Origin: Candidatus Woesearchaeota archaeon
GTDB taxonomy: Archaea; Nanobdellota; Nanobdellia; SCGC-AAA011-G17; UBA489
NCBI GenBank assembly: GCA_964367375.1
Contig: CAYIXG010000004.1
Span: 59,556 to 123,555, forward strand
Direction: 5' to 3'
DNA: 64,000 nt
This document shows, piece after piece, positions 1,425-62,824 of the stretch; the first letter of the stretch is position 1, and each line of letters opens with the position of its first letter. Made by a program: the position numbers and the translations under genes. The notes beneath the pieces were generated by a model. It was not told the DNA's origin. It made no database searches and saw only the letters and a program-made list of their open reading frames with translations.

Positions 1425-3260
1425 TTACATCCCCCACACTGGATTCTGCTTCCGCCTCATTTCTGCTATCTCCTTTAAACATTCCAATTCAGACGAGGAC
1501 AAATATTTTTTGAACTTTTTCAACCTTGTAAACTCTTCCTCATTTATGTCACTATACAACACATCATCCTCTCTCACCTGACGGCCTACTGTGATACCTG
1601 GTACTGAAATGGCAACCTCTTTTCCAATCTCTGCCTGCTGTATGTTTTTCCCATCTTCTTGAATTTCTTTAATCACGCCTACCTTACTTCCATCCTTCTT
1701 CATTATATCAGCGTTCACCATCATGACTCCAAGCTCCACATGCACCCCAAACACTGCAGGATTTGACTGTCGGAAGATGAACCCTCGTAATATCTTTATC
1801 TTACACGGCCTCTGCAATCCTTCAGCTTCCTTTGCTGCACGTTTCTTTTCTTGCTCTTTCTTCCACACATCAAACTCCTCCACAATCTTGAACACCACAT
1901 CATGGCAAATTTGATGCACCTCTGTTTGCCCTTCTGCTTTCTTTACATTAAAACCAAGAATAACCCTCTTCATGACATCCTTCTCTGCCTTCGCTTCTGC
2001 AATATCCTTCTTTGACACATCCCCGATAGATACCCTTTTGATAGGCACCCCTGCATTTTTCAATAAGCCTGTAATTGCTTCTAAACTTCCAATCGTATCT
2101 GCCTTCACCACGACACCCTCCTTTTCTGTCTTCATCATCACCTCCTCAATCTCCTCCTGCATCTCTTGCGCAACCTCTTTCACATTCTTATTTGCCACCA
2201 CAATTGGCATCCCCCCAATGACGTTCTGCTCAGTATTCGGAGCAGCAATCTTTACACTTGCAGCAGCACTTGCCTTCTTTATTGTACTATACTTGCTTGT
2301 TCCTGTCTCTGCTTCAAACAAACCCCTTACTTTTGTGACAATAGGCTTTCCTAATGTTCCGATGACAATCTGATCATTGACGCGTATTGTTCCATCATAC
2401 AAAATAACATCCAATGTTGTTCCTAGCCCCTTTTCCTCCTTCACCTCAAGAATCGTTGCCCTTCCCGGAGTTGTTGTCTTTATTTCCAGCTTCTTTTCCA
2501 TAAACTTCTGCGCCAACCCGAGAATAGTCATCACCAACTCTGGCAAACCTTCCTTCGTCTTTGCACTCACCGGGACAATCGCGATCTGCCGCGTGAAATC
2601 ATCAACCCTATCAAAACGCTCTGCGTTTAAGTTATACTTTGCAAGGCTTGCTACAAGCTCGTACACTTTCTTATCCAACTCTTCCTGCACTCGAGATGAT
2701 TGAGAGGCTATGGCATCTCCTAATCCCTTTGATTCATAGGTATGCCAGCCAGTTATCGTATCAATCTTGTTCAACGCAATCACAAATGGTGTTTTGTACT
2801 GCTTCAAAATTTCAATCGATTCTTTCGTTTGATCCTTCACTCCTTCTCGTATATCAATTACTACAATCGCCATATCTGCAAGATTTCCCCCCCTCTTCCG
2901 CATACTATTAAACGCGGCGTGGCCAGGACTATCTAAAAACAGCAATCCTGGAATGGTCAACCTTGCCATCATCTTCTCCCCCACTGCTCCGCAAATTTCC
3001 CGAATGCGCTTCATTGGCACATTATATGATTTTATTGACTGCGTAATCAATCCTGGCTCTGTCTTTGTAATTGAGCACCCGCTCACTCGCTCCAGAATAC
3101 TTGATTTGCCGTGGTCAATATGACCAACAAGCACCACTATTGGTTGTCTGACAGTCATTTTTTGCTTTTTTTTCTTGAACAAACCTTTTTTATCTTTTGT
3201 TCGGTTTTCTTCATCATAGTAATGCTCGTTTTTTAAAGATTGTGGCAAGAACTCTGTCAC
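1425..3260 (-). CDS. infB: translation initiation factor aIF5B (IF-2 homolog)
   Basis: GTP-binding G1 motif VVLVGHIDHGKSSILE in the N-terminal region, 611 aa, domain order typical of aIF5B. Confidence 0.85.
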   Translation of the reverse strand: MTEFLPQSLKNEHYYDEENRTKDKKGLFKKKKQKMTVRQPIVVLVGHIDHGKSSILERVSGCSITKTEPGLITQSIKSYNVPMKRIREICGAVGEKMMARLTIPGLLFLDSPGHAAFNSMRKRGGNLADMAIVVIDIREGVKDQTKESIEILKQYKTPFVIALNKIDTITGWHTYESKGLGDAIASQSSRVQEELDKKVYELVASLAKYNLNAERFDRVDDFTRQIAIVPVSAKTKEGLPELVMTILGLAQKFMEKKLEIKTTTPGRATILEVKEEKGLGTTLDVILYDGTIRVNDQIVIGTLGKPIVTKVRGLFEAETGTSKYSTIKKASAAASVKIAAPNTEQNVIGGMPIVVANKNVKEVAQEMQEEIEEVMMKTEKEGVVVKADTIGSLEAITGLLKNAGVPIKRVSIGDVSKKDIAEAKAEKDVMKRVILGFNVKKAEGQTEVHQICHDVVFKIVEEFDVWKKEQEKKRAAKEAEGLQRPCKIKILRGFIFRQSNPAVFGVHVELGVMMVNADIMKKDGSKVGVIKEIQEDGKNIQQAEIGKEVAISVPGITVGRQVREDDVLYSDINEEEFTRLKKFKKYLSSSELECLKEIAEMRRKQNPVWGM

Positions 3261-16032: not shown

Positions 16033-17931
16033 ATGCCAGATATCTTTGCAGAAATCAAAAAACACCTTCCTGCAGACGCAGACATTAGTGACACTGCTTT
16101 TGAAGGAGCAAACATCATCCTCTACACCAAAAACAAAGAATTCTTCCTCCAACGCAATACTGTCATTCGTGACATTGTCTCCATCATCAAAAAACGCATC
16201 GAACTCAGACCAGATCCCAGCCTCTGCATGGACCTCGAACAAGCAGAAATCGAAATCAAAAAAATTTTACCAGCAGAAGCAGGCGTTACCAGCGTCCTTT
16301 TCGACCCCGCACGAAGTGTTGCCGTCATCGAAGCAGAAAAACCAGGACTCGTCATCGGCAAACAAGGAGAAATCCTCCGCGACATCAAAAGCAAAACCTT
16401 CTGGGTGCCTGAAGTGCACCGCACCCCCATCATCAGAAGCAAGATCATTGAAAACATTCGCGGCGTGTTATATCAAACAAACGACTACCGCAAAAAATTC
16501 CTCAACAAGGTTGGCCATCGCATCTACGACGGATGGGTGAGAGAACGCAAAGAAGAATGGGTGCGCGTCACCTTCCTTGGTGGCGGAAGACAAGTCGGCA
16601 GAAGCTGCATCTTTCTCCAAACACCCGAAAGTAGAATACTCCTTGATTGCGGCGTGAATACTGCATTCAATGACCAAAACGCATATCCTTATGTTGACTG
16701 TCCAGAATTCAAGATTGAAGAACTGGATGCCATTATCATTAGTCATGCACATCTTGACCATTCAGGATTTGTCCCTTTCCTCTTTCGCATGGGCTATAGA
16801 GGACCAGTCTACTGCACTGCACCCACACGAGACATTTCCGCATTGCTCGCACTTGATTTTATAGGTGTTGCATTCAAGCAAGCAAAGAAAGGACTCTTTG
16901 ACGTGGATGACGTGAAAGAAATGGTCAAACACACCATCTGCCTCGGATGGGAAGAAGTGACTGACATCACTCCAGACATGCGCATCACCTTCTACAACTC
17001 CGGACACATTCTTGGGAGTAGCATGATCCACATCCACATCGGCAATGGACTGCACAACCTCCTCTACACTGGAGACATGAAATATTTACGCACCCGCCTT
17101 CTCGACCCTGCAGTCACCTCTTTCCCTCGATTAGAAACTGTCATCATTGAAAGCACCTATGGAGGAAAAACAGATATCCTCGGATCGAGAAGCGAAGCAG
17201 AACTCAAATTCATCAAATCCATTGATGCAGCAGCCAAGCGCGGAGGAAAAATACTCGTCCCTGTCTTAGGAGTAGGAAGAGCACAGGAAATTCTTGTCGT
17301 TGTGGAGAAAGCGATACGCGAGGGATTAATCCAGCCGATTCCAGTCTACTTGCAGGGCATGGTCTGGGACATCACTGCCATTCACACTGCCTATCCAGAA
17401 TTCCTCAACCAACAACTGCGCAAAAGCATCTTCCACAGGGCAGACAATCCTTTCTTAAGCGACATCTTCAAACGCGTCGGCAGCAGAAAAGAACAAGATG
17501 ACATCATCGAAAGCGAGCAGCCCTGCATCTTAGTTGCAACTGCAGGCATGATGAATGCAGGTGCAAGCTTGGAATACTTCCGCAGACTTGCGGATAATCC
17601 AAAAAATTTGCTCATCTTTGTCAGCTACCAATCAGAAAACACTATTGGGAAGAAGGTGCAAAACGGCGAAAAACAGATCCAACTTAACTACGGCGACAAA
17701 CCAGAAATCATCACCGTGCGCATGGAACTTGTTACCATTACCGAATTCACCGGGCACGCGGGAAGAAATGAACTGCTTCGTTTTGTGCATAATTTAAACC
17801 CAAAACCGAAACGCATCATTGTTAATCATGGAGAAAGCACCAAATGCATCGAACTCGCAAGCACATTCCACAAAATTAACAAGCTGGAAACGTGCGCACC
17901 AAAAAACTTAGAGACGATCAGAATTAAATAA
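16033..17931 (+). CDS. aCPSF1/FttA-type beta-CASP ribonuclease with N-terminal KH domains
   Basis: N-terminal KH-like region. HAHLDHSG metallo-beta-lactamase motif followed by a beta-CASP. 632 aa. Confidence 0.85.
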   Translation: MPDIFAEIKKHLPADADISDTAFEGANIILYTKNKEFFLQRNTVIRDIVSIIKKRIELRPDPSLCMDLEQAEIEIKKILPAEAGVTSVLFDPARSVAVIEAEKPGLVIGKQGEILRDIKSKTFWVPEVHRTPIIRSKIIENIRGVLYQTNDYRKKFLNKVGHRIYDGWVRERKEEWVRVTFLGGGRQVGRSCIFLQTPESRILLDCGVNTAFNDQNAYPYVDCPEFKIEELDAIIISHAHLDHSGFVPFLFRMGYRGPVYCTAPTRDISALLALDFIGVAFKQAKKGLFDVDDVKEMVKHTICLGWEEVTDITPDMRITFYNSGHILGSSMIHIHIGNGLHNLLYTGDMKYLRTRLLDPAVTSFPRLETVIIESTYGGKTDILGSRSEAELKFIKSIDAAAKRGGKILVPVLGVGRAQEILVVVEKAIREGLIQPIPVYLQGMVWDITAIHTAYPEFLNQQLRKSIFHRADNPFLSDIFKRVGSRKEQDDIIESEQPCILVATAGMMNAGASLEYFRRLADNPKNLLIFVSYQSENTIGKKVQNGEKQIQLNYGDKPEIITVRMELVTITEFTGHAGRNELLRFVHNLNPKPKRIIVNHGESTKCIELASTFHKINKLETCAPKNLETIRIK

Positions 17932-25265: not shown

Positions 25266-25463
25266 ATGAAACTCGGGGAAAAGATCGAGCGAGACATTCT
25301 TCTCATCTTGAAAGATTATTCTTTTCCTGTCTCCACTCGAGAGCTTTGCTTGAAGATTGATCGTGCATGGCACTCTGTTAATACTCATTGCCTCAAACTG
25401 CAAATCTCTGGCAAGCTCAAAGGCTACAAAATAGGCAACATCAACGCGTGGTCACTCAAATGA
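25266..25463 (+). CDS. small winged-helix DNA-binding protein (65 aa)
   Basis: DILLILKDYSFPVSTRELCLKID...KLQISGKL has a wHTH-like pattern. Ends at the start of the giant surface protein gene. Confidence 0.35.
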   Translation: MKLGEKIERDILLILKDYSFPVSTRELCLKIDRAWHSVNTHCLKLQISGKLKGYKIGNINAWSLK

Positions 25464-30975: not shown

Positions 30976-31704
30976 ATGGATTATTCGATATTTGAAGAAT
31001 TAGGATTAACGAACGCTGAGATTAAGGTGTATATTCAACTATTAAAGTTGGGATTTTCTCATGCTGGTTTAATAATAGAGAAAACAAGATTACAAACTTC
31101 AGTAGTACACAGAGCTTTAAACTCTTTAATTGAAAAAGGTCTTATTAATTATATTTTAGAAGGAAAAATAAAAACATATCAAGCAACAGAACCAGAACTT
31201 TTTTTAGATTTTATAGATGATAAGAGAATGAAATTTAAAGAAATTCTTCCTGAGCTAAAAAAAGAGCAAGATTCAGCAAAGAAAGGAGAAATAGCTACAA
31301 TATACAAAGGCAAAAAAGGATTGCAGGAAGTATATTATAAGCTAATTAATGTCAAAGCTAAAGAGTATTTAACTTATGGTGGAGGAATAGATGTTGCTAA
31401 TTTCATGAATGTTACATGGTGGAGAAATCTGCATACCAAGAGAAGAGCGAATAAATTACCTTCAAGACAAATCTTTGATAAAACAGTTAAGCCACTAGGA
31501 AAAGGGATTATAGGGATGCCATTAACGAAGATAAAATTTCTTCCTCATGAATTTGCCCAATTTCAAGAAACTGTGATAATAGGAGATTATGTAGCTATCA
31601 ATGTCTTTACTGAAAATGCTTACAGTTTTTTAATAAAGGATGCAAAAGTTGCTGAAGGATATAAAAAATATTTTGAATTATTATGGAAGATTGCAAAATC
31701 ATAA
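30976..31704 (+). CDS. TrmB-family transcriptional regulator (paralog 3, AT-rich)
   Basis: KVYIQLLKLGFSHAGLIIEKTRLQTSVVHRALNSLIEKGLI. C-terminal ...YFELLWKIAKS. Confidence 0.6.
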   Translation: MDYSIFEELGLTNAEIKVYIQLLKLGFSHAGLIIEKTRLQTSVVHRALNSLIEKGLINYILEGKIKTYQATEPELFLDFIDDKRMKFKEILPELKKEQDSAKKGEIATIYKGKKGLQEVYYKLINVKAKEYLTYGGGIDVANFMNVTWWRNLHTKRRANKLPSRQIFDKTVKPLGKGIIGMPLTKIKFLPHEFAQFQETVIIGDYVAINVFTENAYSFLIKDAKVAEGYKKYFELLWKIAKS

Positions 31705-43711: not shown

Positions 43712-44638
43712 TTAATTCAGTAGCTTTAGAATAAGAGCTTTCTGCATGTGCAACCTATTTTCTGCCTGATCGAACACAACAGATTGCTTTCCGTCAATTA
43801 CATCTTTCGTTACTTCCATTCCACGCACAGCAGGCAAACAGTGCATGAATACTGCAGACTTCTTTGCATGCTTCATCAACTCTTTGTTTACTTGATACCT
43901 CTTTAATGCTTTCATTCGAGACGATTTCTCTGCAGGATTAATGTTATAGGACATCCATGAATCTGTGTACACTACATCAGCATCCTTCACTGCTTTTTCT
44001 GGATCATGAATAACAACCACTTTTGATTTGTTCTTCTTCGCATATTTTCTCGCTTGCGCAAGCACTTGTGTCATTGGAGAAAACTTTTTTTCTTTCGGAC
44101 ATCCAATGACAATATTAATACCACTCATCGCACACCCCAGCATTAAGGAATGCGTCACATTATTTCTGCTATCACCTAGATACGCAACCTTCAAGCCCTT
44201 CTTTTTTCCACATACTTCTTGCATTGTCATAAGATCACTTAACGCTTGACACGGATGCTCCACATCACTCAACCCATTAATAACTGGAATAGACGCGTTT
44301 TTCGCTATGATCTCTATCGCCTTATGATCATACATCCTGATCATCATGATATCACAATACCTTGACACCACCCGAGCAACATCCTCAATACTTTCCTTTC
44401 CTTTCGACCAGGGAGAGGTTTCTGCATGATAATCAATCACTTCCCCACCCATCTGAAACATTGCAGAATCAAACGATAACTCCGTTCTCAACGACGGAGC
44501 TGCAAAAAACGTGAATAATACTTTTTCAAACACTTTTTTCTGATATTTTTTCGGATTCTTCTTTATTTCTCTCGCTTTTTTGATCAATTCTTTGATTTCT
44601 TTTTCCTTTACATCATTCATTGAAAGAAGGTGCTTCAT
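43712..44638 (-). CDS. divergent ornithine/putrescine-carbamoyltransferase-fold protein
   Basis: HPCQALSDL and HCLPAVRGMEV are OTC-like, but the carbamoyl-phosphate motif STRTR is replaced by SLRTE. Confidence 0.7.
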   Translation of the reverse strand: MKHLLSMNDVKEKEIKELIKKAREIKKNPKKYQKKVFEKVLFTFFAAPSLRTELSFDSAMFQMGGEVIDYHAETSPWSKGKESIEDVARVVSRYCDIMMIRMYDHKAIEIIAKNASIPVINGLSDVEHPCQALSDLMTMQEVCGKKKGLKVAYLGDSRNNVTHSLMLGCAMSGINIVIGCPKEKKFSPMTQVLAQARKYAKKNKSKVVVIHDPEKAVKDADVVYTDSWMSYNINPAEKSSRMKALKRYQVNKELMKHAKKSAVFMHCLPAVRGMEVTKDVIDGKQSVVFDQAENRLHMQKALILKLLN

Positions 44639-45948
44639 TTTTTTAATGCACTTAATATCATTTTCTTTAATTTCTGTTTTCCAAGCTCTTTGAATGAATA
44701 ACTCACGTTCACCACTCTTTTTTTTGTTTTTATCACATTTGACAAATTGACTGGAGACCCGTCAACAACTGCATCTGCGTCAGATCTGTTAATTGTTTGC
44801 TCTAACTCCTTCATCTGCCTTCTTGAATATCCCATTGCAGGCAAGATTTTCTTCACGTGCAGATATTTTTTGTATATCTCCTTTATTGAACCTACTGCAA
44901 ACTTTTCTGCATCAATGATTTTTCCCCCATATTTTTTTGCAACCAACGTTCCTGCACCAAATGACATGCCGCCATGCGTCACTGTCGGACCATCCTCAAT
45001 TACTATCACTTTCTTTCCTTTGATCCATTCAGGATTTTTCACTTCTTGCGGAGACGCTGCCCTAATGATTGTTGCTTTTGGATTCCAGACCTTACAATGC
45101 ATTTCTACATCCTTTATTGCACTTGCAGATGCAGTGTCCACTTTATTTATGATAAGTACATCCGCACTCAGAAAGTTCACCATTCCCGGATAATATGTTA
45201 TTTCATGACCACTCCGATGCGGATCAAGCACCACTACATTTATTGTCGGCTTGAAAAAGGAAAAATCGTTATTCCCCCCATCCCAAATAATCACCTCTGC
45301 TTCTTTTTCTGCCCTTTCCAAAATCTTCTTATAATCAACACCCGCATACACTGGAATTCCCATCTCAATCCAAGGAGTATACTCCTCTTCTTCCTCAATC
45401 GTGCACCTCTGCTTCTTCATATCACTCACCTTTGCAAACCGCTGCACCACCATTTTTTTCAAATCACCATATGGCATGGGATGTCGTACCGCAACCACAT
45501 TATACCCCTCATCCTTCAGCATTTTTGCAATCGCGCGAGACGTTTGCGATTTTCCTGCTCCCGTTCGTACCGCACAGATTGCGATTACTGGTTTTTTTGA
45601 ACGAATCATGGTATCTTTTGGACCTAAGAGCCTAAACGACGCGCCTGCAGCCATTGCCATTGATGCTTTTTCCATCACTTCCTGATGCGACAAATCAGAA
45701 TATGCAAGACACACCTCATCAATTTTTTCTTTCTTGATGAGCTCTACTAGTCTTTCTTCAGAATAAATAGGAATATCTCTTTTATACAAACGACCAGCCA
45801 TTGATTTTGGGAAGGTTCTTTTTTCAATTCCAGGAATCTGCGCAGCGGTAAACGCGACCACCTCATACTGTGGATTATCTTTAAAATACTGCAGAAAGTT
45901 TTGAAAATCCCTGCCACCAGCACCCATAATCACAACTCTCTTTTTCAT
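44635..45948 (-). CDS. COG2403-like predicted P-loop GTPase (cyclic 2,3-diphosphoglycerate-synthetase-like family)
   Basis: N-terminal Rossmann-like VVIMGAGGRDFQNF. G1 AVRTGAGKSQTS, DGGN, G4 IINKVD. 4-nt overlap with the transcarbamylase gene. Confidence 0.5.
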   Translation of the reverse strand: MKKRVVIMGAGGRDFQNFLQYFKDNPQYEVVAFTAAQIPGIEKRTFPKSMAGRLYKRDIPIYSEERLVELIKKEKIDEVCLAYSDLSHQEVMEKASMAMAAGASFRLLGPKDTMIRSKKPVIAICAVRTGAGKSQTSRAIAKMLKDEGYNVVAVRHPMPYGDLKKMVVQRFAKVSDMKKQRCTIEEEEEYTPWIEMGIPVYAGVDYKKILERAEKEAEVIIWDGGNNDFSFFKPTINVVVLDPHRSGHEITYYPGMVNFLSADVLIINKVDTASASAIKDVEMHCKVWNPKATIIRAASPQEVKNPEWIKGKKVIVIEDGPTVTHGGMSFGAGTLVAKKYGGKIIDAEKFAVGSIKEIYKKYLHVKKILPAMGYSRRQMKELEQTINRSDADAVVDGSPVNLSNVIKTKKRVVNVSYSFKELGKQKLKKMILSALKK

Positions 45949-46022
45949 TGTATACCCCTCTCTTCTTCACCCAACACTGCTATATAACCCTACCTCTTCC
46001 TACCTTACTATTCTAGAATACT

Positions 46023-46205
46023 TTACTCCTTTTTTAACCACTGAGAATCTGCAGTTCTTCCATCAAGCTCGGCAATCACCTTTTTCTTTTTTGACAGCTC
46101 TTGCAGTTCTTGCAACGTAACATCAGCAAATTTTCCTTTCTCACGCTTAATATTCTTATCAAGCATCAAATCAATTAAATGTTTTGAACCCTCTTTCTTT
46201 TCCAT
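46023..46205 (-). CDS. small hydrophilic protein (60 aa)
   Basis: ORF sits between the GTPase-like gene and carbamate kinase on the same strand. Confidence 0.3.
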   Translation of the reverse strand: MEKKEGSKHLIDLMLDKNIKREKGKFADVTLQELQELSKKKKVIAELDGRTADSQWLKKE

Positions 46206-46247
46206 ACCCTTTCTTCACCCTTTCTTCTATATAAACCTTATTCTCTC

Positions 46248-47192
46248 TCAAACAAGCATAGTCCCTGCCTTTCCCTTCACTGCCATTGGCACCTTCACAG
46301 GAGAGGTAATTACTACTTTCTTCCCTCCCTTTTCCAAAAACATGATCGCTGCCTCAATCTTCGGACCCATTGAACCAGGAGGAAACTGGCCTTCCTTTTG
46401 ATACTTCTTTGCATCCTTTACCGTCATTTTGTGCAGAGGCATCTGATTCTTCTTCCCAAAATTGAGAAACACATTATCTACCTCAGTAATAATTATGAGC
46501 TGTTCTGCCTGAATATCAATGCCGAGCTGCGCGGATGCGAGATCCTTATCAATCACTGCAGCCACACCCTTTAACTTCCCTTTTTCTTTAATGACTGGAA
46601 TTCCCCCACCCCCCGCAGCAATCACAATGCTCTGCTTCTTTAACAGCGCATCAATCATCTTCACCCCATCAATCTTTACTGGCTTTGGAGACGCGACTAC
46701 TCTCCTATACCCCCGCCCTTCTTGATATACTAGGGATATTCCTCTCTTTTTGAGCATCCTTGCTTGCTTTTCTGTATACGCTGACCCAATAGGCTTTGTC
46801 GGATGTTTAAATCCTGGATCATTTTTATCCACAATCACTTGTGTTAACACACTCACCACGCTTTTCCTTACTCTATGTTTTTCGAATTCATTTTCTAATG
46901 ACTGTTCAATCAGATACCCGACTTCCCCCTGCAACTCAGCATCCAACACATCAAGAGGGAGAGGAGGAACCTGCTTTTGTGCAAGCTCATTCTGCACCAC
47001 CAAGAATCCAATCTGTGGACCAGAACCGCACACAATCACTGCCTCATTCTTCTTAACAATCGGAAGAATCGCATGGCATACCTTCTGCACATTTTTCACC
47101 AGCTTCTGAAAAGATCCCTTTCCTTTTACCGGAGAGAGCGCATTTCCCCCTAAACTGATGACCATCCTCACTTCTTTTTCACCTCCCTTCAT
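46248..47192 (-). CDS. arcC: carbamate kinase
   Basis: MVISLGGNALSP...VCGSGPQIGF... matches the amino-acid kinase fold and CK N-terminal signature. Confidence 0.8.
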   Translation of the reverse strand: MKGGEKEVRMVISLGGNALSPVKGKGSFQKLVKNVQKVCHAILPIVKKNEAVIVCGSGPQIGFLVVQNELAQKQVPPLPLDVLDAELQGEVGYLIEQSLENEFEKHRVRKSVVSVLTQVIVDKNDPGFKHPTKPIGSAYTEKQARMLKKRGISLVYQEGRGYRRVVASPKPVKIDGVKMIDALLKKQSIVIAAGGGGIPVIKEKGKLKGVAAVIDKDLASAQLGIDIQAEQLIIITEVDNVFLNFGKKNQMPLHKMTVKDAKKYQKEGQFPPGSMGPKIEAAIMFLEKGGKKVVITSPVKVPMAVKGKAGTMLV

Positions 47193-47253: not shown

Positions 47254-47601
47254 TTATTCGTTACCCGTCGAAGACTTCTGCACAATTGCTTGCAACTGCT
47301 GCCCAACATATGCGTCGCTGAGATTCCTTGATCTATCTTTTCCCCTTGCATCAACATGTATTGATTCAAAGGAACCATCTTTTCCCTGATCAACCCCCTC
47401 AATATTTACATACTCCCCAAACATTGTCACTTGCTTTCTGAACACCCTTACTGCTCTCATTGAGTCATTCTCTCGAACCTCATATGCTAATCCTGCATAT
47501 GGGCCTTCATTCACTGTCCCTTTTTTCACCATTTGAGGAGAAGAAGCGCATCCACTGTGCAATGCTGCAACCAACGCAACCAGAGAAAAGAGCCTTTTCA
47601 T
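47254..47601 (-). CDS. small secreted (lipo)protein
   Basis: MKRLFSLVALVAALHSGCASS is a signal peptide with Cys at +1 of the likely cleavage site. Confidence 0.4.
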   Translation of the reverse strand: MKRLFSLVALVAALHSGCASSPQMVKKGTVNEGPYAGLAYEVRENDSMRAVRVFRKQVTMFGEYVNIEGVDQGKDGSFESIHVDARGKDRSRNLSDAYVGQQLQAIVQKSSTGNE

Positions 47602-48764: not shown

Positions 48765-49490
48765 CTATCTTTTTGCTATGTTCCAGAGAACATCAAAAAC
48801 TGCTCTTTGTGTATTTCTAATTGCCTTATCATCTATCTTTACGCCAATAATCTCCTTTTCTAAAGTGATGATTGCTATTTTATCACCAAAAATAAATGTC
48901 ATTGCTCGAACATCTTTTAACGACGTAAGAAACTTAAGATTTGTCACTTTCTTTACCTCTGGATTGGTATACCAAAATTCTGTCTTTTCCGATCTCTCCG
49001 TAAGAATTAAATTAAGTATAATGGAACGTTCTATTCTCTTTCGTGCATAACTCTTTGGAATGTGTTTTGTTTCTTCTGTTACATTTATTGGCGAACCATA
49101 TGCATATAACTCTTTTTCTTCATAAATCTCATTTAATAATGTTATAATTCCTTTTACTCCTTCGTAAATGACAACCTGCGGTCTTTTGCTAAAACTTCCC
49201 GCACGTTCTCTTAACTTTGGAATAAGATCTTTTAAAAAATTTTCTTTTAATTTTAATTGATTTAGCAACTCTTTTGGATCCACAGCACTATACAATAACT
49301 TTTTCTCTTTTTTGTATGAGGCAATAAAACCTTTCTCTGTTAGTCTGTTTAGTGTATCATAAATAGTTGACCTTGGTAGTCCTGTCCTACTTGAAATAAG
49401 AGCAACTGATGCATTTTTTAATTCCAAGGTTGCAAGATACACTCTTATTTCATTATCTGATAACCCGATCTCTCGTAATTCATCTTCCAT
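48765..49490 (-). CDS. TrmB-family transcriptional regulator (paralog 4, AT-rich)
   Basis: RVYLATLELKNASVALISSRTGLPRSTIYDTLNRLTEKGFI. C-terminal ...VFDVLWNIAKR. Confidence 0.6.
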   Translation of the reverse strand: MEDELREIGLSDNEIRVYLATLELKNASVALISSRTGLPRSTIYDTLNRLTEKGFIASYKKEKKLLYSAVDPKELLNQLKLKENFLKDLIPKLRERAGSFSKRPQVVIYEGVKGIITLLNEIYEEKELYAYGSPINVTEETKHIPKSYARKRIERSIILNLILTERSEKTEFWYTNPEVKKVTNLKFLTSLKDVRAMTFIFGDKIAIITLEKEIIGVKIDDKAIRNTQRAVFDVLWNIAKR

Positions 49491-49596: not shown

Positions 49597-50715
49597 ATGA
49601 ACAATACCAAACCAATGATTATAGGGATCGTTTCAGTCATTATCCTCTTGATAGGTATAGTAACCTACGCACTCCTTACCCCCACCCAGAAAAAGGATTC
49701 TATCACCATTGGAGTTATTTTCCCCCAAACAGGCCCTATTGCCGAAGTCGGTGGCTTTCTCTTTAACGGAGTTGACTTAGCACTCCAAGAGATCAATGCA
49801 CACGGAGGCGTCCGGGGAGCTCCCCTCAATATCCTCATTGAAGATGATCAGTGTGTTCCTAAAAATACTGTTACTGCATTACATAAACTCATTGAAGTTG
49901 ATGCTCTCCAATTTATTATCGGTCCCTTTTGCTCAGGATCGATGCTTGCAGCAGCACCCATTGCAGAAGAGAACCGTGTCATTCTTTTCTCACCCGGAGC
50001 GAGTTCCCCCGAAGTAACAGATGCAGGTGATTATATCTTTCGAACAACACCCTCAGATATTCATCAAGCACAATACTTTAGTACGACTCTTGCAGAAAAA
50101 TTTGAAAATGTAGCAATTATCCATGTAGAGAATAAATGGGCAACAGACATGACACATGCATTCACTCAGTCATTTCCAAATACCATTGTCACTATTCAAT
50201 CCTTCGAGAACGATGTTACGGATGTGAGAACGCAACTCCTAAAAATAAAAGAACAAAAACCAGATGCTTTACTTATATTTGTGTACCCAAACCATTACCC
50301 CTTTATCACTCAGCAGCTTGTTACATTAGGCATTGATGTACCTCTCTTTGCTACACATACCTTTGAAACATCAGTCGCATTTCAATTAGGAGAGAATGCT
50401 CAAAGATATACTTACACTAATCTCGATTACCCAGAAGAAAACAGCGACATTGCAGCATTCAAGAATAAATTTTTCACTAAATATGACGAAGAACCCAGTA
50501 TTTGGGTTGCCTTAGCGTATGACACAACCCTCATCCTTGGAGAGGCTCTCAATGCTTGCGGTGAAGATTCAGACTGTGTGAAAGACTATCTTTACGCAGT
50601 CCAAGGATATACAGGAGTATCAGGAGTGAAATCATTTAATGAAAATGGCGATATTACAGACCCTTATTATGTCCTTAAAACAGTAAGCGATGGTAAATTT
50701 GTGAGAATACAATAG
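49597..50715 (+). CDS. ABC-transporter substrate-binding protein, branched-chain amino-acid (LivJ/PBP1) family, membrane-anchored, orphan
   Basis: ITIGVIFPQTGPIAEVGGFLFNGVDLALQEINAHGGVRGAPLNILIEDDQC. No permease or ATPase genes adjacent. Confidence 0.75.
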   Translation: MNNTKPMIIGIVSVIILLIGIVTYALLTPTQKKDSITIGVIFPQTGPIAEVGGFLFNGVDLALQEINAHGGVRGAPLNILIEDDQCVPKNTVTALHKLIEVDALQFIIGPFCSGSMLAAAPIAEENRVILFSPGASSPEVTDAGDYIFRTTPSDIHQAQYFSTTLAEKFENVAIIHVENKWATDMTHAFTQSFPNTIVTIQSFENDVTDVRTQLLKIKEQKPDALLIFVYPNHYPFITQQLVTLGIDVPLFATHTFETSVAFQLGENAQRYTYTNLDYPEENSDIAAFKNKFFTKYDEEPSIWVALAYDTTLILGEALNACGEDSDCVKDYLYAVQGYTGVSGVKSFNENGDITDPYYVLKTVSDGKFVRIQ

Positions 50716-53217: not shown

Positions 53218-53853
53218 TCACTCGCTCCTCTTATTCCACCAGCCCTGCTCCTTTTTGTCCTTTATTCCGCTCAACAAAAGAAGCAAGCCCACCCCTAAAC
53301 TTCCTCCTGCGATCGTTTTTACAAACGACTTGAAAAAAGACTCTGGAAAAAGCTTTAGCAAATTATCTGTTTCCGGATTTAATATCCACAACTCATTATC
53401 AAACATCACCTCATGAAATAGAATAAAACTCTCCCTAAACTGCATACTTAATAACAGTATCCCTATCACTCCTGCTATTGTTATCACTCCTGCTTTTACC
53501 ATCACACCCTTTTTGTTTCCTTTCCCCCTCAGCAGAAGAACAACAAGAATACCCACCACACCATATGCTCCAAAGACCATTCTCTTGTATAATTCATGCA
53601 CATCCTCCATATGCCTCTTTTCTTTTTCATTCAAGAGCGTTGATGAAATTGATTCACCATTCTTAATGAACCTTACCAAAACCTCTCTTTCCTTATCTAC
53701 AGTCTCCTTCCCAAACACATCATATGCACCATTCTTCTCAAACTGACTTTCATAGAAACTCGTGCTACTCATAACAAGCTCAAGATTTAACACAACAATA
53801 ATTACTGCAAGAAGAAGACCAACACAATACTCCTTTCCCTTTCCCATCTCCAC
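53218..53853 (-). CDS. integral membrane protein (about 4 TM), unknown function
   Basis: Hydrophobic segments. No CxxC. Confidence 0.45.
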   Translation of the reverse strand: MEMGKGKEYCVGLLLAVIIVVLNLELVMSSTSFYESQFEKNGAYDVFGKETVDKEREVLVRFIKNGESISSTLLNEKEKRHMEDVHELYKRMVFGAYGVVGILVVLLLRGKGNKKGVMVKAGVITIAGVIGILLLSMQFRESFILFHEVMFDNELWILNPETDNLLKLFPESFFKSFVKTIAGGSLGVGLLLLLSGIKDKKEQGWWNKRSE

Positions 53854-53856
53854 CCC

Positions 53857-54345
53857 TTACTCAACAAGCTTCTCAATCACTGCCTTGAATTCTGCCTCTT
53901 CAGCAGCCAAATCACCCTGCACCTCATAGCCATTGCCAATACGCACATACTTACACCCAAAAATGAATGTAGGGATACTCTCCGCAGGATTAAACTTCCT
54001 AAAAACTTCCAGTTCTATTTCCGGAACACTTGACTCCTGATTTCCTGTCAGCAAATTATCATTTGTGTCCACTTCCCACTGATATGCAATAATCTTTCCT
54101 GCAGCTGCATATTCATCTACCACCTTCTTGAACGTCTCTTTAACCCACTGGCAGTGCGGACACCATGATGTGCTGAACTCCCTAATAATCGGTCTGCCTT
54201 GCTCATCCTTGCATACCTCATCTCCTGAATCTGTAAATGTATCTGTATCCTTTGTTTCAATAGTCACCCTTTTTTGCGTGTCTTGCGCACACCCCGCTAT
54301 CACTATCACGCACAAAAGAAAAAAGAACACGAAGAGCTTATTCAT
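53857..54345 (-). CDS. thioredoxin-fold lipoprotein
   Basis: Lipobox LCVIVIAGC. Active-site SWCPHCQ. Confidence 0.6.
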   Translation of the reverse strand: MNKLFVFFFLLCVIVIAGCAQDTQKRVTIETKDTDTFTDSGDEVCKDEQGRPIIREFSTSWCPHCQWVKETFKKVVDEYAAAGKIIAYQWEVDTNDNLLTGNQESSVPEIELEVFRKFNPAESIPTFIFGCKYVRIGNGYEVQGDLAAEEAEFKAVIEKLVE

Positions 54346-54347
54346 CT

Positions 54348-55178
54348 CTAATTATCCGTGTTCAAAAGCTCTGCATTGAGCACCTGCTCAAAGCTCGTGA
54401 AAGGCTGCGCACCAACGATCTTGAAGACAACCTTCTTCCCGTCCGTGCTCTCCCCATAATACAATCCGAGTTGCGGATTATGCAACTTTTTCAATGCCTC
54501 CACATCAGCTAAACTCTTGTCAACCATGGCAAAGAATGTTGGTGTTCCTGAAGCACCTGCCTTTGTTGCATCAGCATTATCCTTATCCACTTCACTCTTA
54601 TATTTCCCTGCATCGAAACAGCTGTTGAACTTGCTCACATCCAACCCTGCTTCCTGAGCCCACTTCTTATAATTTGCAGTTCCCAACTCTTGTTGGTTCT
54701 TAAAGAGCAAGTCATGATATGCCCAGAATTTTCCCTGTTCATCTGCACACTCTGCAGCCTCTGCAGCAGGATGCGCTTCAGGATGGAACGCTAATGGCAA
54801 GTCTCTAAACACAAGCTTGACTTTTCCCTTCTTCACAAAGTTCTCCTCAATCTGCGGCAAGGTTTGCGTAAATGCTCTTCCACAGAAAGGGCACTGGAAA
54901 TCGCTATACTCAATTAATGTTACTGGAGCCTTTGCATCACCCTTCACTGGATCGTCATCTTCATTCAAATCAATCTTTGCATCAATACCTGGCTCTGGCG
55001 GAAGATTTTGTGGGTTTGTTGGCGAGGGAAGTGCATCTTCCTGACTTCCTCCTCTAAACCCTCCTGTCACAATAGAAATGATAAACAATACTGCAAATAG
55101 AATAGTTCCTATTCTCCACAATGATAACTCATCAAACTCTAACTTAATCTTACGCTTCTCTTTTTGTTCTTCTGTCAT
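54348..55178 (-). CDS. DsbA-like thiol:disulfide oxidoreductase, membrane-anchored
   Basis: N-terminal TM. YSDFQCPFCGRAF is a DsbA CxxC active site. Confidence 0.7.
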   Translation of the reverse strand: MTEEQKEKRKIKLEFDELSLWRIGTILFAVLFIISIVTGGFRGGSQEDALPSPTNPQNLPPEPGIDAKIDLNEDDDPVKGDAKAPVTLIEYSDFQCPFCGRAFTQTLPQIEENFVKKGKVKLVFRDLPLAFHPEAHPAAEAAECADEQGKFWAYHDLLFKNQQELGTANYKKWAQEAGLDVSKFNSCFDAGKYKSEVDKDNADATKAGASGTPTFFAMVDKSLADVEALKKLHNPQLGLYYGESTDGKKVVFKIVGAQPFTSFEQVLNAELLNTDN

Positions 55179-57832: not shown

Positions 57833-60172
57833 TTATAATGTAAACGTGAAGGGAGCAGATGTTGCTGCAAATCCATTCACCAAGAATGGATTGTTTAAAT
57901 CAATTGTCACAAAGTTTCCATACACTGTAATACCTGCAATTGCAGGAGCATTCGGCACATCCCATGTAATTGTACCATTCCCATTTGCATCAGTATACCC
58001 AACAGTGTTTGAGAACCCTACTATCTGCGGCGTGCTTAACACCAGCTGGAACACAAAGTCATCAGTCAACGGCAATATTGCCCCACTCGGCAAGAGAATA
58101 CCTGGCGTTGTTGACAGAGACATCAAAAAGAGGTATAACAATCCTGGACCATCAGGATCTGAAATAGTGATGTTCACTTGCGATCCCACTTGCACGCTTG
58201 TCGGGGCATAGATTGAAGGTTGCGCTGCTGGCGCTGGAATTTCCTCATAGGAAAGCACGACTGCAAACGGCTGGCTTGGGAAAGGCACATTCTTCCCGCT
58301 CACCTTAATTGTATATGCACCGCTTACTGGAGTTTGGATACGCACCTGCTCCACATTATTAATTGTGTCTGTTGTGTCACCAAAAGGAGCATTCCAATCA
58401 TTCCCATTAAACACTGCCCCTGAAGGATCTGTCACAATCAAATCAATATCATTCACCAAATTCACTGGTGAAATCAATGAAGCTTCTTTATCTGTCCAGA
58501 CTAGTGTAACCTTTATCGGCTTGTTTGGCCCTGCATACACTGTGTATGTCATGTTCTGACTGGTGTTAACTCCTGTAGGCTCATCAACAAACCAGATATT
58601 GTGATGGCCTGGTAAGGAATTTGTCATATTTAACCTTCCCCAGCCTGACTCATTGCTTGGGATGCCAAAGCCCATGTCATCCGCACCATTAATCAACGAG
58701 GCTTTTACTAACGCGCTACTCGGATTTATGGAGAAATTTGTCAGATAATACTCACGCATCAAGGCTGCAACGCCTGAAACCATAGGAGCTGCCATGCTTG
58801 TTCCTGTACACTGTGCATAATTTGGCGTCAAACTATAAAATGGAGAGTTTAAGAAACACGTTCCCCATATATTATTCACGCTACTTTTTGTTGAAAAGAC
58901 TAGATAACCTGCAGCCATCAGATCAGGCTTTATCCTTCCATCACGAGCCGGGCCTCTTGACGAACTTGCATACAACGCATTAATATTAGTAGGATAAGGT
59001 GTATGAATATTCTCATGCGCGCCCACAGAGATAACATTCTTTGCAACCGCTTGCGGAGAAATCGTTCCATTTCCAGATTGCCCTGAATTTCCTGCAGCAT
59101 ACACAATGACTATATCTTTATTTGTCCATGTGAATGTATCAATACTCTGCGAATCTGGAGTGTAATTTCCATACAATCCTGAATTGATTGATCCCCAACT
59201 ATTACTGTGCACTCGCGCACCTGAAAGATATGGAGGATTAAACAATCCAGTGCTTAATGGTGTTGGCGGAAAGACAGATGAGTTTCCTAAATCATTTCCC
59301 ATTGCTTGAAATATCAACTGCGCATTCGGCGCAGCACCTGCATAACTTCCTGCAAATATGTTTGCTGTAGGAACGCTTCCTGACAAGTTCCCATTTCCCA
59401 GTGCAGTTCCTGTCACGTGCGTTCCATGCCCATTTATATCATCTGGAGACGTGCTTCCAATTGTTGCAACATCTGTAATACTTATAATTCTTCCCTCAAA
59501 ATCATCATGCATTGACCCATTATTTACTCCTGTATCAAGCCCTGTATCTGCAATTGCAATGATCTGACCATTTCCAAATAAGTTATAATTATCATGCGCC
59601 CCTTGCGCACCCGCAATCACTGTCGATGCGTCATTCAACACTTGATATTGCGGGATTTCTCCCACCCATTCGACACCCTCAATCATTGCAACCTCATCCA
59701 CATTTTTTTTGTTTACTCTAATATCAATACTGTCTTCATGTACCTCTTTGATGCTTACTCCTTTCTCATTCAACTTTTCCAGAATCCATTTCTTATCTGC
59801 ACCATCAAATAAGGTTACTCGCGCTTCAGTTCCTTTCTTTTCACTCAAAGACGCATCCCTATGATCTTTCGACGCGTATCTTCTCCATTCTTTCACTCCC
59901 TTTTTTCTCTGCAAATCATCAAGCTGACCTTCATCAGCACGCACAATATACGCAACCTTTATTTCATCTCCTTCTTTGTGCGTCACCACTCCCTCTATGC
60001 TGACACTCTCTCTTACTCCATCATACACCTCTTGCAACACAGGATATTCCACATCAACAAGATAAAACGCTTCTTCACCATTGACTGCGCCCACAGATAC
60101 TATAGATACTATCATTATAAGTGCCATTCCCAGAGCAATACCCCTTCTTTTCCTTCCTTTTTGGAATACCAT
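57833..60172 (-). CDS. secreted subtilisin-like serine protease (S8) with C-terminal beta-rich extension
   Basis: D in IIAIADTGLDTG, H in HGTHVTGT, S in GTSMAAPMVSG. Signal peptide. Confidence 0.85.
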   Translation of the reverse strand: MVFQKGRKRRGIALGMALIMIVSIVSVGAVNGEEAFYLVDVEYPVLQEVYDGVRESVSIEGVVTHKEGDEIKVAYIVRADEGQLDDLQRKKGVKEWRRYASKDHRDASLSEKKGTEARVTLFDGADKKWILEKLNEKGVSIKEVHEDSIDIRVNKKNVDEVAMIEGVEWVGEIPQYQVLNDASTVIAGAQGAHDNYNLFGNGQIIAIADTGLDTGVNNGSMHDDFEGRIISITDVATIGSTSPDDINGHGTHVTGTALGNGNLSGSVPTANIFAGSYAGAAPNAQLIFQAMGNDLGNSSVFPPTPLSTGLFNPPYLSGARVHSNSWGSINSGLYGNYTPDSQSIDTFTWTNKDIVIVYAAGNSGQSGNGTISPQAVAKNVISVGAHENIHTPYPTNINALYASSSRGPARDGRIKPDLMAAGYLVFSTKSSVNNIWGTCFLNSPFYSLTPNYAQCTGTSMAAPMVSGVAALMREYYLTNFSINPSSALVKASLINGADDMGFGIPSNESGWGRLNMTNSLPGHHNIWFVDEPTGVNTSQNMTYTVYAGPNKPIKVTLVWTDKEASLISPVNLVNDIDLIVTDPSGAVFNGNDWNAPFGDTTDTINNVEQVRIQTPVSGAYTIKVSGKNVPFPSQPFAVVLSYEEIPAPAAQPSIYAPTSVQVGSQVNITISDPDGPGLLYLFLMSLSTTPGILLPSGAILPLTDDFVFQLVLSTPQIVGFSNTVGYTDANGNGTITWDVPNAPAIAGITVYGNFVTIDLNNPFLVNGFAATSAPFTFTL

Positions 60173-60263
60173 GTTTAATTACATCCAAACATAACTTTTA
60201 TATAACCCTTTTGCTTCCCTAATCACCTCATAAAACCATTCATTACAAAAAAGAGGATCATCA

Positions 60264-62021
60264 ATGAACCACACACTCCCTGCGTTTATCCTTCTCAGCC
60301 TCCTCATTATCATTCCTATCGCATCCGCACAACCCACTTTCCTTGACCAAGTCTTTTATTCAGTATCCCTCCTTTTCACTGACTACTTTAAAATCACGGG
60401 ATACGTCGATCGCTTACTTCCAAACCAAGAAGCAGACGCTGATGGAGATGGCATCGCTGATATAAATGATAATTGCCCCACCATCGCAAATGCAAACCAA
60501 TTAGACAGCGATGGAAACGGCGTCGGAGATGCTTGTGATGATGGTGATGGAGACGGCGTGTATGATCTTTCAGACAACTGCCCCTCAACTGCAAATACAA
60601 ACCAGCAAGACTGCGATGATGACGGCACTGGAGACGAGTGCGATGCAACACCAGACCCTAATTGTGTTTGTAACCCCTCACCCAATTCTGCATGCTCTGG
60701 AGGAGGATTTGTAGGCGATGCTGACAGCGATGGCGTTGCTGATGACGGAGATAACTCAGGCTCAACCACCAACGCTCCTTGCCAAGGAGGAACATCCAAC
60801 TGCGATGACAACTGCAGACTTGTCGCAAACGGCCCTTTATTAGGAACTTGCAGCTCCAACGGCGCCCCCTGCTTCGCAAACGCTGCATGCCCAAACAGCG
60901 GAACCTGCAGCCGTTCCCAAGAAGAGTTAGATGATGACACTATTGGAGACGTATGCGACCCTTGCACAGACTCTGACAGCGACTCCTTTGGAGACCCTTC
61001 TTTTTTTGCAAACACCTGTTCACTCGATAACTGCCCGAGCATCAGCAATCCTAATCAATTAGACACAGACAGCGACGGCCTCGGCAATGCGTGTGATCCT
61101 TGCCCTGCAGATCCTCTCAACTCACCAGCATGCGCAAACAGCATTATCAGTGCAGGCGTTTTAGACAATGACAATGATGGCGTTCCAAACGCACAAGATA
61201 ATTGCCTTTACGATTACAACCCTAACCAGCAAGACTCAGATCAGGATGACATCGGAGACGAGTGCGACCTCTGCAGATTTGACCCCACTAATACCTGTAA
61301 TCCTAATCCTACTTTACAACCCCTCCTTCAAGACAGCGACGGCGATGGACACCATGACTTTGTAGACAACTGTGTTGATGTTCCAAACCCCACACAATCT
61401 GACGGAGACCAAGACACTGTCGGCAACGCGTGTGATGTTTGCCCAAACATTCCTGACGGCCCTTTCATTGGCACCTGCTCTGTCAGCCGCGTGCCTTGCA
61501 GCGAGGATTCAGAACCCTGCATAGACGATGACATTTGCGTCAAAGACCAGCAAGACTCGGATGATGATGGCATCGGAGACCTCTGCGAAAGCAGATTTGC
61601 TACCTCTCCAGACATTCTCGAAGAAACACCCTTATCTCCTGAAGACATCACCAGACAACGATTCACCCTTTTCCAAGAAACCTCACTTGAGGAACAAGAA
61701 GCCATCAGAAAACAGCTCGAACAATACCCTCTCGATGACCCCAGACAAATCACTGAAGCCCTTGTCAAGCTGGGATACATTGAAGCAGAACTGTACAGCA
61801 TTCAAACCAATATCAACACCCTCAAAGATTTAGATCCTGAAAATGCTCAGTATGAGGACATCCAAGCACACCTTGATTTTGTCATCACCCAAACGAATAT
61901 CCTTCAAACAGAACTTAAACACCAACGCGCCACTACTCAAAAAGTCTCACGCGTTCCTCTTTACAATCTTGGACGCCAACTCAAACAAGCCCTTAGCAGC
62001 CTTCATCGAATCTTTCAATAA
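60264..62021 (+). CDS. secreted Ca-binding protein with many thrombospondin type-3-like repeats
   Basis: More than 12 D-x-D-x-DG-x-x-D-x-C motifs (DADGDGIADINDNCP, DSDGNGVGDACD, ...). C-terminal alpha-helical region. Confidence 0.7.
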   Translation: MNHTLPAFILLSLLIIIPIASAQPTFLDQVFYSVSLLFTDYFKITGYVDRLLPNQEADADGDGIADINDNCPTIANANQLDSDGNGVGDACDDGDGDGVYDLSDNCPSTANTNQQDCDDDGTGDECDATPDPNCVCNPSPNSACSGGGFVGDADSDGVADDGDNSGSTTNAPCQGGTSNCDDNCRLVANGPLLGTCSSNGAPCFANAACPNSGTCSRSQEELDDDTIGDVCDPCTDSDSDSFGDPSFFANTCSLDNCPSISNPNQLDTDSDGLGNACDPCPADPLNSPACANSIISAGVLDNDNDGVPNAQDNCLYDYNPNQQDSDQDDIGDECDLCRFDPTNTCNPNPTLQPLLQDSDGDGHHDFVDNCVDVPNPTQSDGDQDTVGNACDVCPNIPDGPFIGTCSVSRVPCSEDSEPCIDDDICVKDQQDSDDDGIGDLCESRFATSPDILEETPLSPEDITRQRFTLFQETSLEEQEAIRKQLEQYPLDDPRQITEALVKLGYIEAELYSIQTNINTLKDLDPENAQYEDIQAHLDFVITQTNILQTELKHQRATTQKVSRVPLYNLGRQLKQALSSLHRIFQ

Positions 62022-62767
62022 ACAACTTTCTTTTTTATAAGCATCCATCCTCCAATAATGAGAGGAATGGATAGCCACTGACCCATTGAGAGACTTGCAA
62101 TTATTACCTCTGGCTCCTTTACAAACTCAATCCCAAACCTGAATACTCCATAGCCAACCAAAAAAATGCCAAACAATTGACCATCTTTCTTCACATACTT
62201 TTTACTTAGCACTGCAATTCCTAAAAGGAGAAGATTCTTTGCTGCTTCATACAACTGCGAGGGATGCCGAAAACCTTCTACATTCTGAAATTTTACCCCC
62301 CATGGAAGACTTGTGACCTTTCCATACAATTCCCCATTAATAAAATTTGCAACTCTTCCTAACGCAAGCGCAATCGTTACTGGAATCACTGCAACATCCA
62401 ATAATCGTAGCAAGGAAATTTTTCTCTTTTTACAGAAGATATAACTTACCATTAAAGCCCCTAATAAACCCCCATGAAAAGACAATCCTCCCTTCCAGAC
62501 TGCAATTATTTCCAGGGGATTTGCCAGATAATATCCTGGATTGTAAAAGATAACTTCAAAAAGACGCGCACCCCCCACCACTCCCAGAATTAACCATCCT
62601 ATTAAATTGTCAACGTCCTTTTCTTCAAGAATAAGATATCCTTTTTTTACTGCATGCCTGAGAAAAAGGTAAAAAATGACAAAACCGAGGGCATATATCA
62701 CCCCATAATATCGAATCTCCACTGGACCCAGATTTACCAACACCGGATCGATGGCATGATAGAACAT
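62015..62767 (-). CDS. lgt: prolipoprotein diacylglyceryl transferase
   Basis: N-terminus MFYHAIDPVLVNLGPVEIRYYGVIYALGFV. Lgt signature GRVANFINGELYGKVTSLPWGVKF. SFHGGLLGAL. Confidence 0.75.
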   Translation of the reverse strand: MFYHAIDPVLVNLGPVEIRYYGVIYALGFVIFYLFLRHAVKKGYLILEEKDVDNLIGWLILGVVGGARLFEVIFYNPGYYLANPLEIIAVWKGGLSFHGGLLGALMVSYIFCKKRKISLLRLLDVAVIPVTIALALGRVANFINGELYGKVTSLPWGVKFQNVEGFRHPSQLYEAAKNLLLLGIAVLSKKYVKKDGQLFGIFLVGYGVFRFGIEFVKEPEVIIASLSMGQWLSIPLIIGGWMLIKKKVVY

Positions 62768-62824
62768 ATATTTGATACCATCGCATTCTATATAAAATCA
62801 TTGCTCTGGCACAGCATTCACACC

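Follow-up and report, generated by a model that had tools for sequence, protein, structure and literature searches.

Archaea have been described as lacking homologues of prolipoprotein diacylglyceryl transferase (Lgt) and of signal peptidase II (Lsp) in papers from Nat Microbiol 2022, Nat Commun 2025 and mBio 2026, the earliest of which states that [quoted passage not shown]. The stretch of DNA studied here, 64,000 nucleotides of contig CAYIXG010000004.1 from a Candidatus Woesearchaeota assembly (hereafter the window), raises the question of whether this holds for all archaea. An earlier note on the window, made by reading the sequence, had pointed to a bacterial-type lgt at 62015..62767 among archaeal informational genes. 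Is the protein a true Lgt, does its gene belong to an archaeon, and on which membrane lipid would such an enzyme act? Taken jointly, the propositions that the window Lgt is catalytically competent, that its host is an archaeon, and that the lineage acquired a bacterial-type lipoprotein route from bacteria long ago and kept it have in our estimate a probability of about 80%.

A bona fide Lgt on an archaeal chromosome

The gene and a short element ahead of it are as follows:
62015..62767, minus strand: lgt, prolipoprotein diacylglyceryl transferase homologue; ATG start, 250 amino acids (aa), full length
62789..62797, minus strand: TATA-box-like element TTTTATATA, read from the sequence, centred ~26 nt upstream of the lgt ATG

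The open reading frame (ORF) was confirmed at exactly the coordinates given by the earlier note, and both hallmark Lgt motifs claimed for it (IDPVLVNLGPVEIRYYGVIYALGFV and GRVANFINGELYGKVTSLPWGVKF) were found. The match of the protein to PF01790 (LGT) spans profile positions 1-238 of 240 (E=1.7e-74) and, at 250.6 bits, lies well above the cut-off of 24.9; with TIGR00544 (lgt), for which the curated cut-off is 118.9, the protein scored 206 bits. The sole solved structure matched by sequence was that of E. coli Lgt (PDB 5azb, E=6e-42). The E. coli reference sequence was checked against the literature numbering and the printed 5azb alignment. Loss of the catalytic residues, which the same note had singled out as evidence that would speak against its proposal, was looked for, and all of them proved to be conserved: E. 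coli Y26, H103, G104, D129, R143, N146, E151, G154, H196, Y235, R239 and E243 are identical in the window Lgt, where they correspond in the same order to Y21, H98, G99, D124, R138, N141, E146, G149, H168, Y206, R210 and E214. When the window Lgt and its 119 nearest homologues were aligned with E. coli Lgt, each essential residue was kept in 118-120 of the 120 sequences.

An AlphaFold2 model of the window Lgt, built with 32 homologues, reached a mean predicted local distance difference test score (pLDDT) of 91.1. A Foldseek search of the PDB with this model returned 5azb (template modelling score, TM, 0.84; E=3e-15) as the only match with E<1e-3. The model has the seven-transmembrane Lgt fold with arms and a head domain, the latter shortened. 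The likeness to bacterial Lgt (E. coli 5AZB) thus extends from family membership and the seven-helix fold to the HGGL motif, the GRxxNFxNGExxG signature and Y235/R239/E243, and a lipobox substrate of the same kind is encoded near the window lgt. Several differences were also observed: the window protein has 250 aa whereas the E. coli enzyme has 291, its periplasmic head domain is ~24 residues shorter, its L6-7 loop is ~5 residues shorter with W256 and Y259 not conserved, and, unlike that of bacterial Lgt, its host is an archaeon. We conclude that the window protein is a bona fide Lgt with an intact active site. No Shine-Dalgarno sequence was seen upstream of the lgt ATG, and this, together with the TATA-like element, is the layout expected of an archaeal leaderless transcript, in which the element would be a putative promoter.

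The domain of the host is indicated by the following genes of the window:
1425..3260, minus strand: aIF5B, archaeal translation initiation factor, host-domain marker (GTP_EFTU, IF-2 and GTP_EFTU_D4 domains)
16033..17931, plus strand: FttA/aCPSF1, archaeal transcription termination factor, host-domain marker (PF17214 KH_TffA, Beta-Casp and RMMBL domains)
15315-15962: proteasome subunit, archaeal marker
598-1422, 5950-6672, 30976-31704 and 48765-49490: four TrmB-family regulators, 240-274 aa

These genes, together with a class-Ic GluRS that is also encoded within the window and was counted as an archaeal marker, bear out the archaeal informational surroundings that had been claimed for lgt. Scans of the window for tRNAs and Rfam families gave no matches, and hence no RNA marker for taxonomy. 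Four TrmB-family regulators in a 64-kb window represent an unusually high density.

A check of the contig for chimerism or bacterial contamination had been recommended, and it came out in favour of an archaeal origin: linkage of lgt to archaeal genes recurs in independent assemblies and in a syntenic contig of 909 kb. The identical Lgt protein was found on nine contigs, from ENA and from independent Logan assemblies of separate Hainich groundwater runs (0.1-um fraction). Six of the nine were displayed, and the same lgt neighbours were present wherever the contig was long enough; the longest measure 97.9 and 132.5 kb. The 909-kb contig comes from another sample and encodes a 58%-identical Lgt in the same gene order, Lhr helicase-Metallophos-BFN-Lon_C-like-lgt-TSP3-repeat protein-S8 protease. 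At lgt the guanine-plus-cytosine (GC) content, 0.39-0.43, matches the window mean of 0.42, and there is no compositional break. The gene therefore sits on the chromosome of a Woesearchaeota-type DPANN archaeon, and the contig is not chimeric. Woesearchaeota-type DPANN are here taken by us to be the order Woesearchaeales, phylum Nanoarchaeota, in GTDB.

Partner peptidase, substrates and ancestry of the route

A search of a large protein database with the window Lgt gave 7,985 matches. The best 120 clusters are 47-62% identical to the query, and all organism-named clusters among these 120 are from Woesearchaeota or Nanoarchaeota and are labelled prolipoprotein diacylglyceryl transferase. The lgt genes of relatives lie in archaeal contexts, with aEF1A and S10 (L009/L010), NucS (L008, the 909-kb contig) or aIF1A (L028) nearby. 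A single-protein scan of GTDB genomes, too narrow for charting the distribution, returned one locus, with 46% identity, in a Rifle Woesearchaeota genome (L007). In a metagenome scan, loci with more than ~44% identity were low-GC and of DPANN type, while loci with up to ~43% identity were high-GC with a common gene order and were taken as alphaproteobacterial. Among 30 homologue representatives clustered at 50% identity, organism names were available for two, one from Woesearchaeota and one from Peregrinibacteria. No bacterial Lgt in the sample exceeds 44% identity to the window protein; the nearest named ones are those of Collinsella (44%, tblastn), Peregrinibacteria of the candidate phyla radiation (CPR; 43%) and alphaproteobacteria (~40%), and the Lgt of Neisseria gonorrhoeae shares 39% by tblastn and 44% in a trimmed alignment.

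Archaeal Lgts fall in two groups in a neighbour-joining (NJ) tree of 161 sequences with labelled archaeal and bacterial references; in an earlier NJ tree these groups were adjacent in leaf order. They are 48-56% identical to each other, closer than either is to any sampled bacterium. Directly upstream of Woesearchaeota-type lgt, on the same strand and often overlapping its start codon, lies a gene for a multi-pass membrane protein of ~270 aa (for example L009:9192-10001, L011:9196-10014, L102:4179-4952 and ~20 other related loci), which is absent from the window. In approximately half of the related loci this gene and lgt show translational coupling. Its products fall into two sub-families (hhalign probability 80%, E=1.4e-5), whose distribution follows that of the two Lgt groups. 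Pfam and PDB sequence searches with the ~270-aa protein gave no match; the protein may be an accessory factor in the Lgt pathway of these archaea. Since the two Lgt groups are mutually closest and each is preceded by its own sub-family of the ~270-aa protein, a single old acquisition is favoured. Lgt is a lineage-wide trait of Woesearchaeota-type DPANN. The bacterial-style lipoprotein route that the earlier note had attributed to horizontal gene transfer is supported in a refined form, as a transfer neither recent nor isolated to this contig.

Lsp, the peptidase that follows Lgt, was sought with a hidden Markov model (HMM) built from three reference bacterial LspA sequences, which gave two matches in related loci, both verified with Pfam. 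A 7-kb contig (L028) encodes a signal peptidase II (PF01252, 128 bits) that has both catalytic Asp motifs, IDR and NIAD, and carries a 52%-identical lgt and aIF1A as well. The counterpart of this locus on a 97-kb contig of GCA_019322805.1 (L102) has lgt and lsp 5 kb apart, in the order: unknown 257-aa protein, lgt, glycosyltransferase, unannotated gene and PurB-like lyase, lsp, aIF1A, GDH, A-type ATPase operon. With the L028 Lsp as the query, at least 120 clusters were retrieved, and the organism-named ones are all signal peptidase II of Woesearchaeota. Both Lgt and Lsp are therefore established in the Woesearchaeota-type lineage. A separate arrangement was observed on a 26%-GC contig (L078:523-1589) from a DPANN or CPR organism of ultra-low GC. 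Here the pathway takes the form of a fused operon: a short Lsp of 124 aa (PF01252, 77 bits) overlaps the beginning of an Lgt of 232 aa, and a surface protein of 1208 aa is encoded next to the two.

Candidate substrates and the genes linked to them are as follows:
53857..54345, minus strand: thioredoxin-fold protein, 162 aa, with signal peptide and canonical lipobox (IAGC); starts MNKLFVFFFLLCVIVIAGC, lipobox Cys19, CPHC redox motif
54348..55178, minus strand: DsbA-like thiol:disulfide oxidoreductase, anchored in the membrane by its N-terminus and lacking a lipobox; its gene heads the dsbA-trx-lit operon
53218..53853, minus strand: four-helix membrane protein of the Lit family (PF07314); 3 nt separate its gene from that of the lipobox thioredoxin upstream
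47254..47601, minus strand: small secreted non-redox protein, 115 aa, with lipoprotein-like signal peptide MKRLFSLVALVAALHSGC

The lipobox reported for the thioredoxin-fold protein (PF00085, E=3.8e-7) was upheld by translation and by a lipobox scan of the window. In MNKLFVFFFLLCVIVIAGC the lipobox is preceded by a short n-region and a hydrophobic h-region, and the scan found this to be the sole canonical match on a plausible gene, the others lying within or opposite longer annotated ORFs. The protein is a predicted Lgt substrate. The plural in the "lipobox-bearing redox proteins" of the earlier note was slightly overstated: the thioredoxin-like protein qualifies, but its DsbA-like neighbour (PF13462, 110.6 bits; PF01323, 66.6 bits) has no lipobox Cys. 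The best NCBIfam match of the DsbA-like protein, NF041057 (Rcas_1661 family thioredoxin-like (seleno)lipoprotein), scored 139 bits, below the cut-off of 190; in the window protein a transmembrane anchor takes the place of a lipobox. The intergenic gaps in dsbA-trx-lit are 2-3 nt. A second, weaker candidate is the small protein at 47254..47601, for which a Pfam scan gave no match and whose lipobox is non-canonical (LHSGC, with His at -3). A periplasmic binding protein at 49597-50715 was considered as a lipoprotein and rejected, as it has a membrane anchor and no Cys.

Textbook lipobox ORFs were found directly beside lgt in several relatives (in L009, for example, ...LLSAC and ...LLAGC), and 15 of the 44 archaeal-type loci contain at least one. 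Across these 44 loci, Cys followed a lipobox-like tripeptide in 26 of 386 cases, compared with a local Cys frequency of 2.2%, which is threefold above expectation (p=1e-6).

The Lit-family protein and the proposed pathway

The gene directly downstream of the lipobox thioredoxin was overlooked in the earlier reading of the window. Its product scored 101.7 bits with PF07314 (cut-off 24) and matched B. cereus Lit (PDB 7b0o) with E=8e-13. Residues H81, D84, V85, F146, H147, F151 and W156 are invariant in the alignment of its homologues and correspond to B. cereus H85, D88, V89, F152, H153, F157 and W162, the catalytic His-His dyad included; the roles of the B. cereus residues, namely the His85/His153 dyad together with Phe157 and Trp162, have been described (PMC8275575). 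An AlphaFold2 model reached a pLDDT of 89, and Foldseek matched it to 7b0p/7b0o with TM 0.79; the four-helix Lit fold and its cap are present. The protein resembles Firmicutes Lit (B. cereus 7B0O) in its fold, the His-His dyad, the invariant Phe and Trp, and the linkage to a lipoprotein gene. It differs in being ~21% identical to B. cereus Lit and in having an archaeal host, which raises the question of whether an ester-linked substrate exists. In the known Lit reaction the ester-linked sn-2 acyl chain of diacylglyceryl-Cys is moved to the alpha-amino group, which is impossible with ether chains (PMC8275575). A chemistry that needs an ester-linked chain is odd for an archaeon. The window protein is a candidate lipoprotein intramolecular transacylase, with an uncertain role.

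From these components the following pathway can be proposed. Lipobox proteins such as the thioredoxin-like protein at 53857-54345 would be exported by Sec. Lgt would bind a phosphatidylglycerol-type lipid in the conserved Arg138/Arg210 pocket and move the glyceryl-lipid moiety of the donor onto the thiol of the lipobox Cys. Lsp, found in relatives and not in the window, would then cut the signal peptide ahead of the lipidated Cys. In the window genome, the Lit-type enzyme may finally move the sn-2 acyl chain to the alpha-amino group that this cut exposes, which would leave an anchor of the lyso form. That the enzymes are active, the sequence in which they act and the nature of the donor lipid are all put forward here from sequence and structural comparison. 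The Arg pocket of E. coli Lgt has been described as recognising the anionic phosphoglycerol head group (PMC4728403).

The presumed task of the window Lgt, thioether lipidation of the lipobox Cys, is the same as that of AliA/AliB (arCOG02177/02178) of Haloferax volcanii, and two pocket arginines have been proposed to be important in both AliA and Lgt (PMC12462473). AliA is only marginally similar to PF01790 according to its discoverers (PMC12462473), whereas the window Lgt is a clear member of that family.

Alternative readings, neighbouring genes and significance

Several observations weigh against a complete and functional bacterial-type route in this organism. The search for Lsp that the earlier note had recommended was positive in a large Woesearchaeota clade, with lsp 5 kb from lgt in one relative, but the HMM from three bacterial LspA sequences found no Lsp either in the window or in its flanking 10 kb. 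Just one canonical lipobox protein is encoded in the 64 kb. As to whether Lgt is nested among bacterial sequences, for which a phylogeny had been called for, the closest named homologues are archaeal, but a clean split between archaeal and bacterial Lgts was recovered in only 11 of 100 NJ bootstraps, which leaves monophyly unsupported either way. The Lit homologue scored below the NCBIfam cut-offs (NF051877, 55.2 against 400; TIGR01906, 73.3 against 74.8), and its 23 detectable relatives are at most 38% identical, the two named ones being bacterial; of two relatives whose genomic contexts were seen, one context is clearly bacterial and the other bacterial-looking. This gene looks like a separate, sporadic acquisition from bacteria. 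Finally, the ether lipids of canonical archaeal membranes are built on glycerol-1-phosphate, a backbone that mirrors that of the known Lgt substrate. The lack of an lsp in the window and the single canonical lipobox ORF would fit an lgt left over from a sporadic transfer, decaying or repurposed and without a part in the maturation of lipoproteins. We consider this very unlikely: none of the catalytic residues varies among more than 120 diverged homologues, which implies strong purifying selection, and the same lineage holds a parallel clade of Lsp. Lipobox Cys residues are enriched in lgt neighbourhoods, and the conserved ~270-aa gene is coupled to lgt in ~20 loci. Another possibility is that lgt is not archaeal and entered the contig by bacterial contamination or an assembly or binning chimera. 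Lgt has otherwise been reported in bacteria only (PMC13251419), and the groundwater sample yielded a mixed metagenome in which CPR bacteria abound. Contamination or chimerism is nevertheless very unlikely, and effectively refuted, because the same genes lie on both sides of lgt in several independent assemblies, archaeal markers are present on its contig, gene order is shared with a second archaeal genome, and GC shows no break at lgt; in relatives, moreover, lgt adjoins aEF1A/S10, aIF1A and A-type ATPase genes.

With the ancient, retained route as the preferred reading, the lipid donor is the point on which two readings compete. Our slight lean, which we hold tentatively and at somewhat less than even odds, is toward ester-linked, bacterial-type phosphatidylglycerol. 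By this reading Woesearchaeota-type membranes would hold ester-linked glycerol-3-phosphate phosphatidylglycerol, either self-made or scavenged from bacterial partners, for true diacylglyceryl lipoproteins (lyso-form in the window genome). Alternatively, the pathway could be the same with an Lgt adapted to the archaeal membrane: the donor would be archaetidylglycerol (ether-linked isoprenoids on glycerol-1-phosphate), the anchor an archaeol-type thioether, Lgt the functional equivalent of Haloferax AliA, and the Lit-family protein would have another role. This is a possibility to which we give less credence. Cultured DPANN archaea carry host-derived archaeal lipids, which we count in favour of an ether donor. 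The same can be said of the diphytanylglyceryl anchors of characterised archaeal lipoproteins (PMC12462473), of the phosphoglycerol head group bound by the Arg pocket, which is common to both lipid types (PMC4728403), and of the shortened, non-conserved L6-7 loop that holds W256 and Y259 in E. coli. However, the donor-contacting residues known from E. coli (Y26, E151, E202, Y235, R143 and R239) are unchanged across 120 homologues, including Y26, which bonds the sn-2 oxygen, and archaeal and bacterial Lgts are 40-48% identical, an ordinary divergence with no sign of retooling. A Lit homologue with an intact dyad also lies in an operon with the lipobox protein, and the O-to-N acyl shift fails on ether chains (PMC8275575). 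Bacterial fatty-acid synthesis and glycerol-3-phosphate (G3P) dehydrogenase genes, which speak against an ether donor as well, are encoded by some Woesearchaeota (PMC8204110). We lean to the ester-linked donor because the donor pocket of Lgt has not changed and because Lit chemistry depends on an acyl chain in ester linkage; the Lit homologue kept under selection and the bacterial lipid genes of some Woesearchaeota add to this.

Other genes around lgt deserve mention. It is flanked (window 57833-62021) by genes for a 779-aa secreted S8 subtilase and a 585-aa thrombospondin type-3 (TSP3) repeat protein; both proteins have ordinary, non-lipobox signal peptides, and both genes are kept beside lgt in the 909-kb contig. 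Just upstream of lgt, the Rifle Woesearchaeota genome (L007:7549-9579) has a gene for a DsbA-like protein and two genes that resemble BlaI/BlaR1. As judged by eye from their translations, these two encode a repressor of the Penicillinase_R type and a membrane protease with an HExxH motif; this is another envelope module of bacterial style. Elsewhere in the window (43712-47192, minus strand), an ornithine carbamoyltransferase (43712-44638) is encoded near an amino-acid (carbamate-type) kinase (46248-47192), which points to an energy pathway of the arginine deiminase type, a frequent prediction for DPANN. Large ORFs at 13446-14885, 18392-20284, 25388-28552 and 41725-43245 encode proteins of 479-1054 aa with signal or anchor sequences and with either no Pfam match or Laminin_G_3 only; these are probably lineage-specific surface proteins.

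Bacterial systems described in Woesearchaeota and Pacearchaeota include sigma-70, GroEL, DnaK-DnaJ-GrpE, the methylerythritol phosphate (MEP) pathway and fatty-acid/G3P dehydrogenase genes (Castelle et al. 2021, PMC8204110). The Lgt route resembles these modules in being fixed across a DPANN lineage and verified by archaeal neighbours (PMC8204110). Lgt, Lsp and lipoproteins are absent from the text and the supplements examined of that study (PMC8204110). Literature searches found no relevant report that connects Woesearchaeota or DPANN with Lgt, with Lsp or with lipoproteins. The NCBI annotation pipeline already names Lgt and Lsp proteins in records of Woesearchaeota metagenome-assembled genomes; as far as we could find, these enzymes are known to the databases and not to the literature.

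The window Lgt is a new member of a known family in an unexpected domain and part of a widespread Woesearchaeota-type Lgt/Lsp route. The reported absence of Lgt and Lsp has been used to argue that archaeal lipids forced the separate AliA/AliB machinery, and the reported phyletic distribution of both enzymes is corrected by the finding of a large archaeal lineage with the bacterial enzymes. Some archaeal genomes with predicted lipoproteins but no AliA/AliB may be explained by this route. Antibiotics that target Lgt or Lsp, such as globomycin, should affect some archaea. The lineage also offers a handle on the lipid divide, in the question of whether archaeal ether lipids can serve a canonical Lgt as donors or whether these DPANN cells carry bacterial-type ester phospholipids. 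Should the ester-linked donor prove correct, the set of Lgt, Lsp and Lit would be a genomic readout of a breach in the divide between archaeal and bacterial lipids.

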